Below, one piece after another: positions 1,810 through 38,741 of a DNA stretch of 40,668 nt (the first letter of the stretch is position 1; every line of letters starts with the position of its first letter). This DNA comes from a virus (taxonomy: Duplodnaviria > Caudoviricetes), in the IMG/VR virus record IMGVR_UViG_3300014656_000050, positions 1 through 40,668 of that record; one strand, written 5' to 3'. The translations under genes and the position numbers were made by a program. The notes beneath the pieces were generated by a model, which was given only the letters and a program-made list of their open reading frames with translations, ran no database searches and was not told the DNA's origin.

Positions 1810-3408
1810 ATGAGTTTTTTTCTTGAACCAAATGACTACTGGCACAACCAACACGCCGACCGTGCCGTAAATTTCATCAACGGGCTAACCCACACCAAGG
1901 GTAAATTCGCGGGATACCGGTTCGATCTTCGAAAATGGCAAGAGGCCGTAATCAGAGAGATTTTCGGAAAGGTCAACCGCCACGGTCGACGTATTATCCG
2001 CACAGTTTTTTTTGGAACGCCTCGAAAAAACGGGAAATCAGAACTTGCGGCCGCAGTGGCCCTATATATGCTTTTTGCGGACCGCGAAATAGGCGGAGAG
2101 GTATATTCAGCGGCCGCCGAAAAGGATCAAGCGTCGATTATATTTAATGTTGCCGCACAAATGGCCAGAAATAACGCGCATTTAAAAAAACGCACAAAAT
2201 TTATTGACTCCCAAAAGAGAATGGTTGTGCAAAAAACAGGGTCAATTTATCGGGCCATTTCGTCGGACGCGCACACAAAACACGGATTCAATTCGTCTGG
2301 GATTATGTTTGATGAACTTCACGCTCAACAAAACAGGGATTTGTGGGACGTTTTGGCAACTTCGACTGGCGCACGGGAGCAACCGCTCACGTTCTCGCCA
2401 ACAACGGCCGGGTATGACCGTCATTCAATCTGTTATGAGCAATACGACTATGCAAAAAGGATAATGGCCGGTGAAATTGAAGACGAAACGTTTCTCCCTG
2501 TAATCTGGGAGACACCCAAGGACGCCGACTGGACCGACGAGAATATCTGGCATGGGTGCAACCCGGCTCTTGGCGATTTTTTAAGCCTGGAGGCATTGAG
2601 ATCAGCGTTCAAGCGGGCCAAGGATAGTCCCGCATATGAAAACACATTTAGACGACTGCACCTCAATCAGTGGACGGCACAGGACGTGCGTTGGATGCCG
2701 ATGGACGCCTGGGAGTCATGTGGGCGAAAGATTTTTACCGAGGAAAACTTTATTGCACGACCGTGTTACGGCGGACTTGATCTTGCGTCGACGACGGACG
2801 TTGCGGCCTTTGCTCTTGTTTTTCCACCTGTCCCCGGAGATGATTTTTTTTATGCTCTGTGTTATTTTTGGATCCCAGAAGACGGGATCCAGCTTAAAAG
2901 ACACAAAGACAAGTCACTTTATCAAGCTTGGGTAAATACCGGACACATGGTAGCTACGCCTGGAAATGTGATTGACTACCAATATATTATAAATGAAATT
3001 AAAAGGTTGAGCGTAAAATTTGACATACAGGAACTTGCGTTTGACAGGTGGGGTGCAACAAAAATTATTCAGGATCTTGAAGAGATCGGCTTCACGGTCG
3101 ATCCTAAAGGACGCGGAAAAAAACTTATTCAATTCGGTCAGGGTTTTCAGTCAATGAGTGCGCCAACAAAAGAGTTGCTAAACCTCGTTTTATCACGTAA
3201 AATTGAGCATAGGAATAATCCGGTCCTGAAATGGATGGCTGACAACATGATAGTGAGAACTGATCCCGCAGGAAATATCAAGCCCGATAAGGGCAAGTCG
3301 TCCGAAAAAATTGACGGCATGGTTGCGCTTATTATGGGGCTTGACCGCGCATTGAGACATCAAGACCATAAGAGCGTTTACGAGACGCGGGGCGTGCGAG
3401 TTCTTTGA
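1810..3408 (+). CDS. terL: terminase large subunit
   Basis: Walker A PRKNGKS, Walker B FDELH, TTAG, nuclease GGLDLAST-D, KIDGMVALIM. Confidence 0.97.
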   Translation: MSFFLEPNDYWHNQHADRAVNFINGLTHTKGKFAGYRFDLRKWQEAVIREIFGKVNRHGRRIIRTVFFGTPRKNGKSELAAAVALYMLFADREIGGEVYSAAAEKDQASIIFNVAAQMARNNAHLKKRTKFIDSQKRMVVQKTGSIYRAISSDAHTKHGFNSSGIMFDELHAQQNRDLWDVLATSTGAREQPLTFSPTTAGYDRHSICYEQYDYAKRIMAGEIEDETFLPVIWETPKDADWTDENIWHGCNPALGDFLSLEALRSAFKRAKDSPAYENTFRRLHLNQWTAQDVRWMPMDAWESCGRKIFTEENFIARPCYGGLDLASTTDVAAFALVFPPVPGDDFFYALCYFWIPEDGIQLKRHKDKSLYQAWVNTGHMVATPGNVIDYQYIINEIKRLSVKFDIQELAFDRWGATKIIQDLEEIGFTVDPKGRGKKLIQFGQGFQSMSAPTKELLNLVLSRKIEHRNNPVLKWMADNMIVRTDPAGNIKPDKGKSSEKIDGMVALIMGLDRALRHQDHKSVYETRGVRVL

Positions 3409-32637: not shown

Positions 32638-32680
32638 ACGTTTGTTACGGTTCAAGCGTAAACTAAACCAAGGGGTTGAA

Positions 32681-34936
32681 ATGGAATACCACGATTTTTT
32701 GGCACAGAAAAAAACGATTTCCGAGATGTCTGGGTTTGAGCCGACCATGGAAATAAATCCAATGCTTTTCACCTGGCAGGCTGATATTGTCCGGTGGGCC
32801 CTTCGAAAGGGCAAGGCTGCACTCTGGGAGGATTGTGGACTTGGGAAAACCCCACAACAACTAGAATGGGCAAAACACGTTCACGCGCACACCGGGGAAC
32901 CCGTGTTGATATTGGCCCCCTTGGCAGTGTCGCAACAGACAATTAGGGAGGGGACAAAATTCGGGGTTGAGGTTCACAAATGCAAGGACCAGTCCGACGT
33001 TGTCAACGGGATCAATATCACAAATTACGAACGTCTTCACTTGTTCGACGCAGTCGTTTTTTCCGGAGTTGTCCTTGACGAATCTAGTATTTTAAAATCG
33101 TTCATGGGAAAAACAAAACAGGCCATTATCGACTCATTCCGTAACACAAATTACAAACTGGCCTGCACTGCAACTCCGGCACCAAACGACCATATGGAAC
33201 TTGGAAATCACGCAGACTTTCTTGATGTTATGCCGTCAAATGAAATGTTGTCCAGGTGGTTTATAAACGACACTATGAACTTTGGGACATACCGTCTTAA
33301 GGGACACGCGGTGAATAGTTTTTGGGAATGGGTTTCCTCCTGGGCCGTGTGTATCGGAAAGCCATCGGATATGGGCGCAGACGACGACGGTTTCAATCTT
33401 CCGGACATGGAAATCATTCATCACGTTATACCTACCGATCATGCCAAGGAAGCCGGTGAGGGGAACTTGTTTTATATGCCGGCAGTTAACGCAACCGGTC
33501 TTCATAAAGAACTTCGAAAATCATCTTCCAGTCGGGCAAAAATATCGGCGGATATGGTGAATGGATCAGATGAATCGTGGATTGTTTGGCTGAATACAAA
33601 CTATGACGCCGATGAAATTTTGAGACTTATACCGGACGCGGTTGAAGTCAGGGGAAACACACCTGACGCGCAAAAAGAGCAGCGATTGATTGACTTTTCA
33701 ACAGGCAACTCCAGGGTGATCATTACCAAACCGTCAATCGCTGGGTTTGGGCTTAATTGGCAACACTGCCACAACGTCGTTTTTATGGGCCTGACATACT
33801 CGTATGAACAACTGTATCAGGCCATTCGCAGGTCATTTAGGTTTGGTCAAAAAGAGAAAGTAAATATCCACTTGGTCTCCTCTGAAACTGAGCAGGTTGT
33901 TGTCGATTGTCTGCAACAAAAACAAGTTGAACACGAGAAAATGAAATCGAACATGTATCGGTTCAACTTTAGCAAACTTGATCAAGAAAGAAAAAAACTT
34001 GTTGTCAGGGAAACTGTCAGGGAGGAAAAGGGAGTTAATTGGAAAATAATCAATGGTGATTCGGTCGAGCGGATCAAAACTATCGAATCTGATTCGGTTG
34101 GACTGTCAGTTTTTAGCCCGCCGTTTTCAAACCTCTATATTTATTCTGACTCTATCAGAGACATGGGAAACTGTAAAAACGATCAAGAGTTTTTCGACCA
34201 ATTCAAGTTTCTTATACCTGATCTTTTGAGAATCACAATACCTGGCAGGTTGGCGTGTATCCACTGTAAGGACCTGGTGGATTATAAATCAAGGGACGGA
34301 CATGCCGGATTGAGGGATTTTCCTGGAGATATTATTAGGGCAATGACTGATTCCGGTTGGGTTTACCATTCACGGGTTACAATTTGGAAATGTCCAGTGA
34401 CAGAAATGACAAGAACAAAAGCGCAGGGGCTACTCTATAAGCAGATAAAAAAAGATTCTGCTTATTGTCGGACTGGACTATCTGAATACCTTTTGGCATT
34501 CAGGAAGCAGGGTGACGATGTATCTCCTATTGTCCATGACAAAAGAAATTTTCCTCTTGAACAGTGGCAACGAATAGCCGAACCTGTTTGGCCTGATAAA
34601 TCTTTTGTTGAGTCTGGTATATGGTTTAACATCGCCCAAACGAAATGCCTTAACAAGGAAATGGCTAAGGACCACAATGATGAAAAACACATATGCCCGC
34701 TACAAATCGGCGTGATTGAAAACTGCCTAAAACTTTGGAGCAACCCAGGTGATTTGATTTTTGATCCATTTTCAGGTATCGGTTCAACCGGATATGTGGC
34801 GGTTAAATCTAAAAGAAACTTTCTTGGAGTTGAACTTAAACAATCATACTTTGATCAAGCGATCAGATACCTAAAGAGGGCAGAACAAGAAGGAGTGACA
34901 ATGCCATTATTTGATTTGTTGGAAACAGGGAGTTGA
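32681..34936 (+). CDS. SNF2/DEAD-like helicase fused to an N4C/N6A DNA methyltransferase
   Basis: CGLGKT, VLDESS, TATPAPND, GFGLNWQ, QAIRRSFRFGQ; then VFSPPF (motif IV) before DPFSGIGST (motif I), i.e. beta-class order. Confidence 0.92.
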   Translation: MEYHDFLAQKKTISEMSGFEPTMEINPMLFTWQADIVRWALRKGKAALWEDCGLGKTPQQLEWAKHVHAHTGEPVLILAPLAVSQQTIREGTKFGVEVHKCKDQSDVVNGINITNYERLHLFDAVVFSGVVLDESSILKSFMGKTKQAIIDSFRNTNYKLACTATPAPNDHMELGNHADFLDVMPSNEMLSRWFINDTMNFGTYRLKGHAVNSFWEWVSSWAVCIGKPSDMGADDDGFNLPDMEIIHHVIPTDHAKEAGEGNLFYMPAVNATGLHKELRKSSSSRAKISADMVNGSDESWIVWLNTNYDADEILRLIPDAVEVRGNTPDAQKEQRLIDFSTGNSRVIITKPSIAGFGLNWQHCHNVVFMGLTYSYEQLYQAIRRSFRFGQKEKVNIHLVSSETEQVVVDCLQQKQVEHEKMKSNMYRFNFSKLDQERKKLVVRETVREEKGVNWKIINGDSVERIKTIESDSVGLSVFSPPFSNLYIYSDSIRDMGNCKNDQEFFDQFKFLIPDLLRITIPGRLACIHCKDLVDYKSRDGHAGLRDFPGDIIRAMTDSGWVYHSRVTIWKCPVTEMTRTKAQGLLYKQIKKDSAYCRTGLSEYLLAFRKQGDDVSPIVHDKRNFPLEQWQRIAEPVWPDKSFVESGIWFNIAQTKCLNKEMAKDHNDEKHICPLQIGVIENCLKLWSNPGDLIFDPFSGIGSTGYVAVKSKRNFLGVELKQSYFDQAIRYLKRAEQEGVTMPLFDLLETGS

Positions 34937-34939
34937 GAT

Positions 34940-35061
34940 ATGTTTGATATTGACAAGTTTCAATTTGAATTGAACTGAAAAAATCGTATTGGGAAACATC
35001 AATCAAAAACAGGATGAGGGCTGAAAAAGAATCGGAAGCCATGCCCCTATTTGCAATGTGA
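34940..35061 (+). pseudogene. relic of a second DNA methyltransferase gene (internally deleted)
   Basis: 34957-35061 reads VSI*IELKKSYWETSIKNRMRAEKESEAMPLFAM*, matching the C-terminus of the upstream MTase (GVELKQSYFDQAIRYLKRAEQEGVTMPLFDL). Confidence 0.7.
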
Positions 35062-35073
35062 GGATAACGAAGA

Positions 35074-35679
35074 ATGCAAGATTGCGGTGATAGTGTAATG
35101 GTAGCATTGCCACTGTTCCCAGTGGAAGGTCAGGGTTCGATTCCCATGTCACCGCTCCAGTTTGATGTCATAGAAATTCCAAGGCTAAGGTTTATAAAAC
35201 TAAACAAAAAATGGCATTCTGTTTTGCCATTGGCAAATGACTGTTGGCATGGTGATTGTTATGCTTGCGAGTTCAAAAATGTAATTTTTGCCGTGGCATG
35301 GTGGAGTCATCCTATTGCCGGCAATAGACTAAAATTAGGTAAAAATATATTAGAGTTAAGGAGAATGGCCATATGTGATCTTGCCCCTAAAAACACGGCA
35401 ACGAGGTTTTTAAAGATAATGTGTATAATTCTAAAGAAAAAATACCAACATATATATAAGTTTATCTCATATCAGGATACTGAAAACCATTTAGGAACAA
35501 TATATAAAGCGTCTGGATGGAATCCAACTGAATCTCAAAAAAAGTTTGAAACGTGGAAAGGACATTCAAAACGCGCTGGACTTATAGACCAGTCTACAGC
35601 GATAAAAGTTAGATGGGAGAAACAAATAAGGCCTGAGCCAATCACTGAAAATAACAACTTTGTTCAAAAAAAACGATAA
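35074..35679 (+). CDS. Mom-like GNAT-fold DNA adenine-modification protein
   Basis: AVAWWSHPIA, LELRRMAI-D-APKNTATRF, ISYQD---HLGTIYKASGW, K-RW, recognised as Mom/XF1762-type motifs; SD GAGGA. Confidence 0.75.
   Translation: MQDCGDSVMVALPLFPVEGQGSIPMSPLQFDVIEIPRLRFIKLNKKWHSVLPLANDCWHGDCYACEFKNVIFAVAWWSHPIAGNRLKLGKNILELRRMAICDLAPKNTATRFLKIMCIILKKKYQHIYKFISYQDTENHLGTIYKASGWNPTESQKKFETWKGHSKRAGLIDQSTAIKVRWEKQIRPEPITENNNFVQKKR
35084..35159 (+). tRNA. tRNA-Gly-like element (non-canonical) inside the Mom-like CDS
   Basis: Acceptor GCGGTGA/TCACCGC + T + CCA; D arm GTGT-AATGGTA-GCAT; anticodon arm CCACT-GTTCCC-AGTGG; T arm CAGGG-TTCGATT-CCC(A)TG; 76 nt. Confidence 0.8.
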
Positions 35680-35689
35680 GGGAGAGAAA

Positions 35690-36016
35690 ATGTTTGATCT
35701 TAATCAATTCCAACGCGAACACAAAAAATGGACAGACCATAATTTTCCTGACGCCCCGGCCTGGCAATCGTTTGTTGGGGCGGTTGAAGAACTGGGCGAA
35801 CTTGCTCACGCATTCCTAAAACTTACACAGGGAATCAGGGGAGCAAAAGAGGAACACATTGCAGAAATGCGCGATGCCATTGGCGATGTGATTATTTACC
35901 TGAGTCATTTTTGTAACGTCCATGGATTTTTGTTGTCGAAAATCATCGACGAAACATGGACAGAAGTTAGGAAACGTGACTGGAAAAAATATCCTGGAAA
36001 TGGGGTGGAAAAATGA
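35690..36016 (+). CDS. MazG-like nucleotide pyrophosphohydrolase
   Basis: EELGELAH...[10 protein letters not shown]; SD AAGGGAG. Confidence 0.88.
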
Positions 36017-37794: not shown

Positions 37795-37998
37795 ATGACC
37801 ATACCTGGACAAAAGGAAAGAATGTTAACGTGTCACGAAACCATTAAAGCACTTGAAAACTCAGTCTTTGTGTGCTCGCACTGCGGACGAACGATTGAGT
37901 TTGAAGAACGCTTTATTGACGCAACTAAAAACAATGTGTTTTGTATGGTTTCTGAATGCAAGTGTCTTACACAAAGAAGAACGGGGTGTGGTGAATGA
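37795..37998 (+). CDS. small Cys-rich protein
   Basis: CSHCG...C----C. Confidence 0.55.
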   Translation: MTIPGQKERMLTCHETIKALENSVFVCSHCGRTIEFEERFIDATKNNVFCMVSECKCLTQRRTGCGE

Positions 37999-38741
37999 AA
38001 ATCATCAAACCGTCATACGAAATACTGACCGATATCGACCCAAAAAAAATCATGGCAAATATCGAACGTGCCGGCCGAACCTGCTACAAGTCCGAGGACA
38101 AAATCAAAACAGAATGGGTGAAAATAGGAAAAAATTTACAAAAATTTTCAACAGGTGATGTCCACTATATTCCAGCTTTAAGCAAAAAAAACACGTCAGC
38201 CGAGCCGTTCATTCGGGGAATCATAAAGTCCGGCCACCACTCCGTTCTGGAACACGAATCTATTTCCGTCAGATTCATCTGTGATCGGGGGGTGAGCCAT
38301 GAACTGGTCAGGCATCGGTTGGCGTCTTTCAGCCAGGAGTCAACGCGGTATTGCAACTATTCTGTAGACGGGTTGACGTTCATTAGGCCATTATTTTGGG
38401 ATGAAAACAGTGAGGAATATTACCAGTGGGCCTATGCCATGAAGGTTGCGTCTCAAACGTATATGCGGCTTTTACAACTTGGCGCCAGGCCAGAACAGGC
38501 CCGTGCCGTTCTACCAAACAGCCTCAAAACAGAAATAGTCATGACCGCTAACATCCGGGGATGGCGTCACGTCTTCACCCTCAGATGCACCAAGGCCGCT
38601 CACCCGCAAATGAGGGAAATCATGATGCCATTATTGGAGGAATTGGCGATAAAACTCCCGGTGTTGTTTGGTGATGTGTTTAGAGATATTTTAGACAATA
38701 TTGTCGAAAAACATTATGCGTCCAATATCGAAAATATGTAG
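37995..38741 (+). CDS. thyX: FAD-dependent thymidylate synthase
   Basis: GHHSVLEH, RGVSHELVRHRLASFSQESTRY, ARAVLPN, AHPQMR. Confidence 0.96.
   Translation: MKIIKPSYEILTDIDPKKIMANIERAGRTCYKSEDKIKTEWVKIGKNLQKFSTGDVHYIPALSKKNTSAEPFIRGIIKSGHHSVLEHESISVRFICDRGVSHELVRHRLASFSQESTRYCNYSVDGLTFIRPLFWDENSEEYYQWAYAMKVASQTYMRLLQLGARPEQARAVLPNSLKTEIVMTANIRGWRHVFTLRCTKAAHPQMREIMMPLLEELAIKLPVLFGDVFRDILDNIVEKHYASNIENM

Follow-up and report, generated by a model that had tools for sequence, protein, structure and literature searches.

A tRNA-Gly-like element selected within the reading frame of phage Mom genes, and its likely role as a glycyl donor

A cloverleaf resembling tRNA-Gly lies wholly inside the 5' end of a Mom-family gene in a tailed phage, which raises the question of whether this RNA is real and selected and, if so, what it would do in the message of a DNA-modifying enzyme. 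The window, meaning the whole stretch of DNA that was analysed, is a 40,668-base tailed phage record, 85% complete, in which terminase, portal, capsid, tape measure, tail and replication genes are annotated; no tmRNA was found in it with ARAGORN. The answer favoured here, from sequence comparison, is that the element is probably a non-decoding glycyl donor cut from Mom's own mRNA, which would also cap Mom output. The features concerned are as follows.

32642..34936, plus strand: SNF2-like helicase fused to an N6/N4 DNA methyltransferase (Pfam PF00176, PF00271, PF01555)
35059..35076, plus strand: Shine-Dalgarno-like TGAGG (35059-35063) and start codon (from the sequence)
35074..35679, plus strand: GNAT gene of the Mom family, 201 aa when started at ATG 35074 (PF25680, phrog_1384, Foldseek)
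35084..35159, plus strand: tRNA-Gly-like element, 76 nt, codons 4-29 of Mom in frame (ARAGORN, RF00005, covariation)
35084..35090, plus strand: 5' strand of the acceptor stem (G1, C2, G3), pairing with 35149-35155 (family pairing)
35093..35107, plus strand: D arm, 4 bp and a 7-nt loop (two-sided changes)
35110..35125, plus strand: anticodon arm, 6-nt loop GTTCCC (TCC at 35117-35119) with an extra covarying closing pair (RNAalifold)
35131..35148, plus strand: T arm with bulged A 35146 between the equivalents of pairs 50-64 and 51-63 (family conservation)
35149..35159, plus strand: acceptor stem's 3' strand, U73 (35156) and encoded CCA (35157-35159) (C74 conservation)

The element and its host gene

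The host gene belongs to the Mom family. Its product matches the PF25680 profile at 46.5 bits (cut-off 27.1, E 4.6e-12), and its best PDB match by Foldseek is Mu Mom (8bv8, E 3.7e-9, TM 0.66), with which it shares the GNAT fold and several core residues at 15-16% structural identity and from which it differs in a shorter C-terminal region. The AlphaFold model has a mean pLDDT of 86.6, with low values for residues 1-20. By pairwise alignment R97, D135 and Y144 correspond to Mu R111, D149 and Y159, and H48 matches Mu H58 by motif position; T110 replaces Mu S124, a position at which 63 of 73 relatives have Ser, and no equivalents of Mu Y59 and R151 are kept. With Thr for S124 and without Y59 and R151, a Mu-like chemistry of the window protein is thus putative. 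Two DNA-modification genes stand side by side at this locus, the helicase-methyltransferase fusion (32642-34936) lying directly upstream of mom. A PAPS-reductase-like gene precedes the terminase at 562-1290, and a MazG-like gene (35690-36016) and ThyX (37995-38741) are also present in the 40.7-kb window.

A first-pass annotation made from the letters had described a 76-nt cloverleaf, and its details were verified: the ATG at 35074 and G1 at 35084, the acceptor stem GCGGTGA/TCACCGC, T73 and a CCA ending at 35159, the D loop AATGGTA, the T loop TTCGATT, the bulged A at 35146, and a distorted anticodon arm in which CCACT/AGTGG surrounds the 6-nt GTTCCC. The same bases encode CGDSVMVALPLFPVEGQGSIPMSPLQ in the reading frame 35074-35679. 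The element is the single tRNA call of ARAGORN in the window, as tRNA-??? with a 2-base anticodon, and reaches 34.9 bits with Rfam RF00005 (gathering score 29, E 5.6e-5). Its folding z-score is -2.43, with 2 of 200 shuffles equally stable. Folded as a single sequence, the D arm prefers another hairpin, the tRNA pairs of its stem reaching a probability of about 0.06 in context, and the tRNA D stem therefore rests on family covariation. Counted from the first base of ATG 35074, G1 is at +11. Another ATG in the same frame is found at 35098, inside the D loop, and the Shine-Dalgarno-like site precedes the upstream ATG 35074. Signals resembling a sigma-70 promoter or a plus-strand terminator were not found near the element beyond chance (14 versus 10.9).

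Distribution among Mom genes

For the family analysis, 204 loci were fetched. A scan of viral contigs with a single protein gave no relative, whereas alignment scans did; the viral search is biased, one of its patterns lying within the element itself, and the search of metagenomes relied on patterns from the core alone. A covariance model was built from 146 elements. The first-pass annotation had proposed looking for recurrence in Mom-like homologues, and this was borne out: the model matches 74 of 80 metagenome relatives, these being the best 80 of 472 against the full-length query and many of them being among the 146 training elements, and two of the six unmatched loci are truncated on their 5' side. 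Most of the best 120 homologues start with the peptide that the tRNA encodes, a strict pattern fitting 99 of 119, and the same pattern, which undercounts, is present in at least 51 of 150 cluster representatives. In the opposite direction, a search of viral DNA with a pattern for the bulged element yielded 120 matches (77 distinct); a Mom core, recognised by profile, comes next in 109, and in 108 of these it shares the frame. Among the rest, eight show Mom motifs by eye, two are cut by contig ends and one runs into a stop. The partner Mom cores are as little as about 25-28% identical to the window core.

The element is not confined to viral and metagenome sequences. Mom matches were found in 21 of 401 genomes from the class to which a Chloroflexi MAG belongs, presumably Dehalococcoidia. 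The covariance model matches 18 of 30 loci from this class, 17 of them at the 5' end of Mom, and 12 are without a match; the 17 elements are bulged and UCCA-ended, many with a 5-nt anticodon loop. The tie to one gene bears on a counter-defence decoy, in which the released RNA would absorb or resist host tRNA-targeting nucleases or toxins for reasons unrelated to Mom chemistry. The anticodon loop is indeed deformed, and U73 and G71 are identity elements of the TacT toxin (PMC9976931). A general decoy would not be expected to be tied to one gene, however, and 117 of the 120 pattern matches form the 5' end of a Mom gene, the family whose known co-substrate is Gly-tRNA-Gly; a decoy is thus very unlikely.

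Many Mom genes are without the element, which is dispensable. In another viral Mom clade, none of 80 loci has it at its own 5' end. Among cultured phages it was found near none of eight Mom loci; in whole records, four of five gave no model match and the fifth a weak one of 31 bits, and blastn of two elements gave only weak matches to ordinary tRNAs; a cultured host system did not emerge from these searches. Whole-record searches likewise showed no free-standing copy in four viral records that lack one in frame (L038, L070, L058, L370), three of them 26-42% complete, and a model search of five bacterial genomes gave only matches of 40-51 bits, within the range of ordinary tRNAs. Here there is one copy of the element per genome. 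Tandem Mom paralogues carry it in the upstream gene only in L392 (1031-1106) and L410 (1655-1730), and in both genes in L129 (228-303 and 1510-1585).

Decayed and free-standing copies are also seen. A decayed in-frame copy was found in 14 loci of the same clade, with a nearby free-standing copy in two: in L062 (1719-1792, about 780 nt before the Mom gene) and L172 (2293-2368, 13 nt before it) a bulged, CCA-less element stands free, and of the decayed copy in frame a peptide relic is left. In L482 a bulge-free tRNA-Gly(TCC) (2137-2214) lies about 9 nt past the stop of a Mom gene without a 5' element, which is possibly the un-nested state. The element of L483 (1413-1489) is read in a different frame, so that the RNA persists without the peptide. 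Together, the free-standing copies and the reframed one favour action of the RNA in trans. In L477 and L478 a 77-nt element has a shifted 5' part, the RNA being kept and the peptide changed. L435 has a degenerate bulged tRNA-like element without a D stem (3222-3289), about 2.2 kb after the Mom gene and, by eye, just before an ORF resembling the terminase small subunit.

Selection on the RNA and on the reading frame

Requiring at least 19 of 21 pairs to be formed gave 176 distinct elements; the loci dropped by the filter (11 viral, 9 metagenome, 30 genome) include several length variants later recovered by the covariance model. In the 146 elements of type I, 98.3% of 3066 cells are paired, a percentage inflated by the filter, and two-sided changes, which the filter does not affect, occur at 18 of 21 pairs. 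When partner columns are slid by 1-3, pairing falls from 98% to 38-51%. In the acceptor stem G1-C72 and G3-C70 are present in 146 of 146 and C2-G71 in 145, and pairs 4 and 5 covary; the D arm has two-sided changes at all four pairs, with 99.7% of cells paired. RNAalifold recovers the cloverleaf unaided and adds a pair, 31-38, that closes the 6-nt loop (UA in 95, CG in 29, UG in 18, broken in 4 of 146). The acceptor-stem covariation that the first-pass annotation had called for is present, as it is in the other three stems: on a protein-core tree of 127 tips, columns that are true partners share 278 joint parsimony changes, while 200 deranged pairings on the same tree give 50.8 +/- 11.3 and at most 84.

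Many covarying changes alter amino acids, pair 4-69 for example reading G/P, A/A, V/T or D/S. Synonymous sites were compared in 77 core-selected elements with expectations from each gene's own codon use, the relatedness of the sequences overstating significance: G71 is present in 77 (19.6 expected), C35 in 77 (36.9), A14 in 74 (24.2), and C74 of the CCA, a synonymous third codon base, in 67 (15.8). The RNA structure is under selection, as judged from these sequence patterns. This weighs on the reading that the element is a fossil, in which a tRNA gene or attachment site was once captured and is now kept only as peptide. Such a reading has in its favour that residues 21-30 of the window protein are modelled confidently by AlphaFold and that the peptide relic outlives the decayed RNA in some lineages (L038, L047, L062 and others). 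It is at odds with the compensatory changes and the fixation of synonymous sites, and also with the single copy per genome and with a structure different from that of chromosomal tRNA-Gly; the fossil and attachment-site readings are rejected because of the covariation, and are exceedingly improbable.

The frame is conserved as well. None of the 176 elements contains a stop when read in the Mom frame, whereas the two alternative frames are interrupted in 162 and 152. An ATG precedes the element in the Mom frame by no more than 10 codons in 137 of 172 cases, compared with 10 and 8 for the alternative frames, and Shine-Dalgarno-like motifs are modestly enriched (48 of 137 versus 15%). Variants of 73 or 79 nt stay in frame (L044, L063, L096, L153, L177); the elements of L035, L105 and L131 measure 77 nt. 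By these sequence measures the element is read in frame as a translated part of Mom genes. In the window's sub-branch (7 of 176) the bulged A, at 35146, doubles as the A of an in-frame ATG (35146-35148), and some gene callers start proteins there (P0019, P0024).

The position of the element also suggests a switch acting in cis, in which the cloverleaf would control Mom expression and never be a glycyl donor; the routes would be cleavage of the mRNA by RNase P, occlusion of the start, or binding of the message by Mom or GlyRS. In 114 of 137 genes G1 falls between +5 and +14, counted from the A of the start codon, within the usual 30S footprint, and the acceptor stem forms in mRNA context, with a pairing probability of 0.79 in the window and above 0.5 in 70% of 174. 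In seven elements (L212, L216, L279, L301, L302, L049, L094) the D-loop ATG is the only candidate start; in these loci an in-frame stop lies just upstream and the ribosome site before the ATG is buried in the acceptor and D stems. Moreover, Mu mom is potentially lethal and tightly regulated (PMC7261163), and a switch would be like the model put forward for selB/selC (PMC8124441). By itself, however, it leaves unexplained both the fixed C35-C36, U73 and a bulge at the EF-Tu site, and the free-standing copies of L062, L172 and L482 away from any start. A switch with no donor role is therefore judged unlikely, though it is the main alternative to the donor reading.

Conserved deformations, glycine identity and the donor reading

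The unusual features remarked on in the first-pass annotation proved to be conserved family traits, the bulged A being present in 175 and the 6-nt loop in 146 of 176 elements. They bear on whether the element is a decoding tRNA-Gly(UCC), ordinary or suppressor, placed inside the gene for economy of space. Some elements are named tRNA-Gly(TCC) by ARAGORN, the normal 7-nt anticodon loop occurs in 30 of 176, and the tertiary contacts U8, A14, G19, C56, U54 and A58 are largely retained. Nevertheless, a canonical decoding tRNA-Gly has a 7-nt anticodon loop and an uninterrupted 5-bp T stem, whereas the window element has a 6-nt loop, as do most of the family (5 nt in the second branch), and a T stem interrupted by the bulged A, which is absent from all eight chromosomal tRNA-Gly inspected. 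A decoding tRNA is thus most improbable.

Charging by glycyl-tRNA synthetase is another matter, since the bacterial identity set of U73, G1-C72, C2-G71, C35 and C36 (PMC9976931) is complete in the window element. Across the family U73 is found in 162 of 176 and the other identity bases in 175-176, C35 and C36 being present together in 176 of 176; the CCA is imperfect in 12. Of the pairs named by the first-pass annotation as bacterial identity elements, G1-C72, C2-G71 and U73 hold, and G3-C70 is listed for the archaeal and yeast enzymes (PMC9976931). In the second branch, that of the Chloroflexi class, the first anticodon base varies (UCC, GCC, ACC, CCC) with C35-C36 constant, which fits charging identity and not decoding. 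A73 occurs in 14 of 176 elements, and the chromosomal tRNA-Gly(TCC) of L455 (1501-1574) has A73 too; A73 perhaps tracks the host GlyRS type.

The donor reading draws on the chemistry of the best-studied member of the family: Mu Mom moves glycine from Gly-tRNA-Gly to adenine N6 in double-stranded DNA (PMC13219725), which confirms for Mu Mom the donor named in the first-pass annotation. Because that Mom uses glycine from a charged glycine-tRNA, the element is likely Mom's private glycine carrier. Host RNase P and 3'-trimming enzymes would release it from the transcript, host GlyRS would charge it with glycine, and Mom would use the charged element as a private glycyl donor for modification of phage DNA, provided that the window's subfamily performs the same chemistry as Mu Mom. 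The T-stem site tunes EF-Tu binding (PMC7826273), and the bulged A probably weakens it; with the 6-nt anticodon loop it would keep the element off EF-Tu and the ribosome. Several points tell against the donor reading: a T-stem bulge was dispensable in selC* tRNA-Cys (PMC5389517), many Mom genes do without the element, free copies seldom stand near decayed ones, some elements have a normal anticodon loop or an imperfect CCA, and the window protein departs from Mu Mom at S124, Y59 and R151. A reason for a private donor is offered by the finding that sequestration of Gly-tRNA by EF-Tu inhibits the GNAT-type transferase FmhB (PMC7826273), but one is not required, given that Mu Mom accepts all three ordinary E. 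coli tRNA-Gly isoacceptors (PMC13219725). With the start codon 1-4 codons before G1, each transcript would be either translated or processed, and this choice may tie the amount of donor to that of the enzyme and limit the output of a potentially lethal protein. The fuller proposal, which we hold to be an even call, is that in many phages and islands one transcript of a self-contained gene yields either the DNA-modifying enzyme or its ribosome-proof glycyl-tRNA, with the bulged A conferring orthogonality and a race between ribosome loading and processing setting the balance.

Relation to known systems and meaning

The first-pass annotation took the system to be undescribed, a claim that falls: McMurdie and colleagues reported in 2011 a 76-bp tRNA-Gly-like 'pseudo-tRNA' inside the opening 150 bp of the mom homologue carried by Dehalococcoides ssrA genomic islands; its DCC anticodon lies in a loop of 5 nt, and it was assigned no function (PMC3146451). 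The window element agrees with it in length, tRNA-Gly likeness and nesting in the 5' part of a mom homologue, and the 17 Mom 5' elements of the Chloroflexi class (bulged, UCCA, 5-nt loops) match the description. The window differs in being a tailed phage with a distant Mom subfamily and a UCC in a 6-nt loop, unlike the DCC in 5 nt of the pseudo-tRNA, and in having no ssrA integration module (dsiB, dsiA, parB). That report predates the Gly-tRNA chemistry, and in the portions of its text consulted the T-stem bulge and a phage distribution are not mentioned (PMC3146451). The co-substrate of Mu Mom was shown with host tRNAs, and an embedded tRNA goes unmentioned in the consulted main text of PMC13219725, of its preprint and of PMC7261163. 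No paper tying an embedded tRNA to Mom's glycyl donor was found in a search of openly available literature, and supplements may bear on the point. The phage distribution, the conserved deformations and the likely donor role were not found in print.

Two other systems offer parallels. The staphylococcal NP1-3 tRNA-Gly that serve FmhB, FemA and FemB are GlyRS-chargeable, bind EF-Tu poorly and feed a GNAT-type glycyl transferase (PMC7826273); their typical TGC T loop is present in 49 of 176 Mom elements. They differ in being free-standing chromosomal genes, in that the acceptor is peptidoglycan, and in weakening EF-Tu binding by choice of T-stem pairs and not by a bulge (PMC7826273). In Alphaproteobacteria a whole tRNA, selC, lies in frame within the gene of its partner protein, selB (Mukai 2021, PMC8124441); either-or processing has been proposed, and remnants and un-nested forms exist. 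The window element is likewise wholly in frame without a stop. Whereas selC is a functional decoding tRNA at the 3' end of a cellular gene (PMC8124441), the window element is deformed, lies at the 5' end, belongs to mobile elements and is partnered with a DNA-modifying enzyme.

By covariation, synonymous-site fixation and frame, the tRNA-Gly-like RNA nested in the translated Mom gene is real and selected, as first proposed, and it is a widespread RNA-in-gene whose existence had been noted once before. If the donor reading is true, it explains a 'pseudo-tRNA' left without a function since 2011, shows how a phage enzyme wins charged glycine-tRNA from EF-Tu, makes the T-stem bulge a second evolutionary solution for a non-decoding donor tRNA, and predicts glycine use by all these distant Mom subfamilies. 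From the 176 natural variants one can read which features of the tRNA are required by Mom, GlyRS and the processing enzymes, a matter left open in the Mom paper. Cloning such genes in codon-optimised or 5'-truncated form would remove the RNA unnoticed, and a tRNA scaffold that is excluded from the ribosome yet chargeable could serve synthetic biology.
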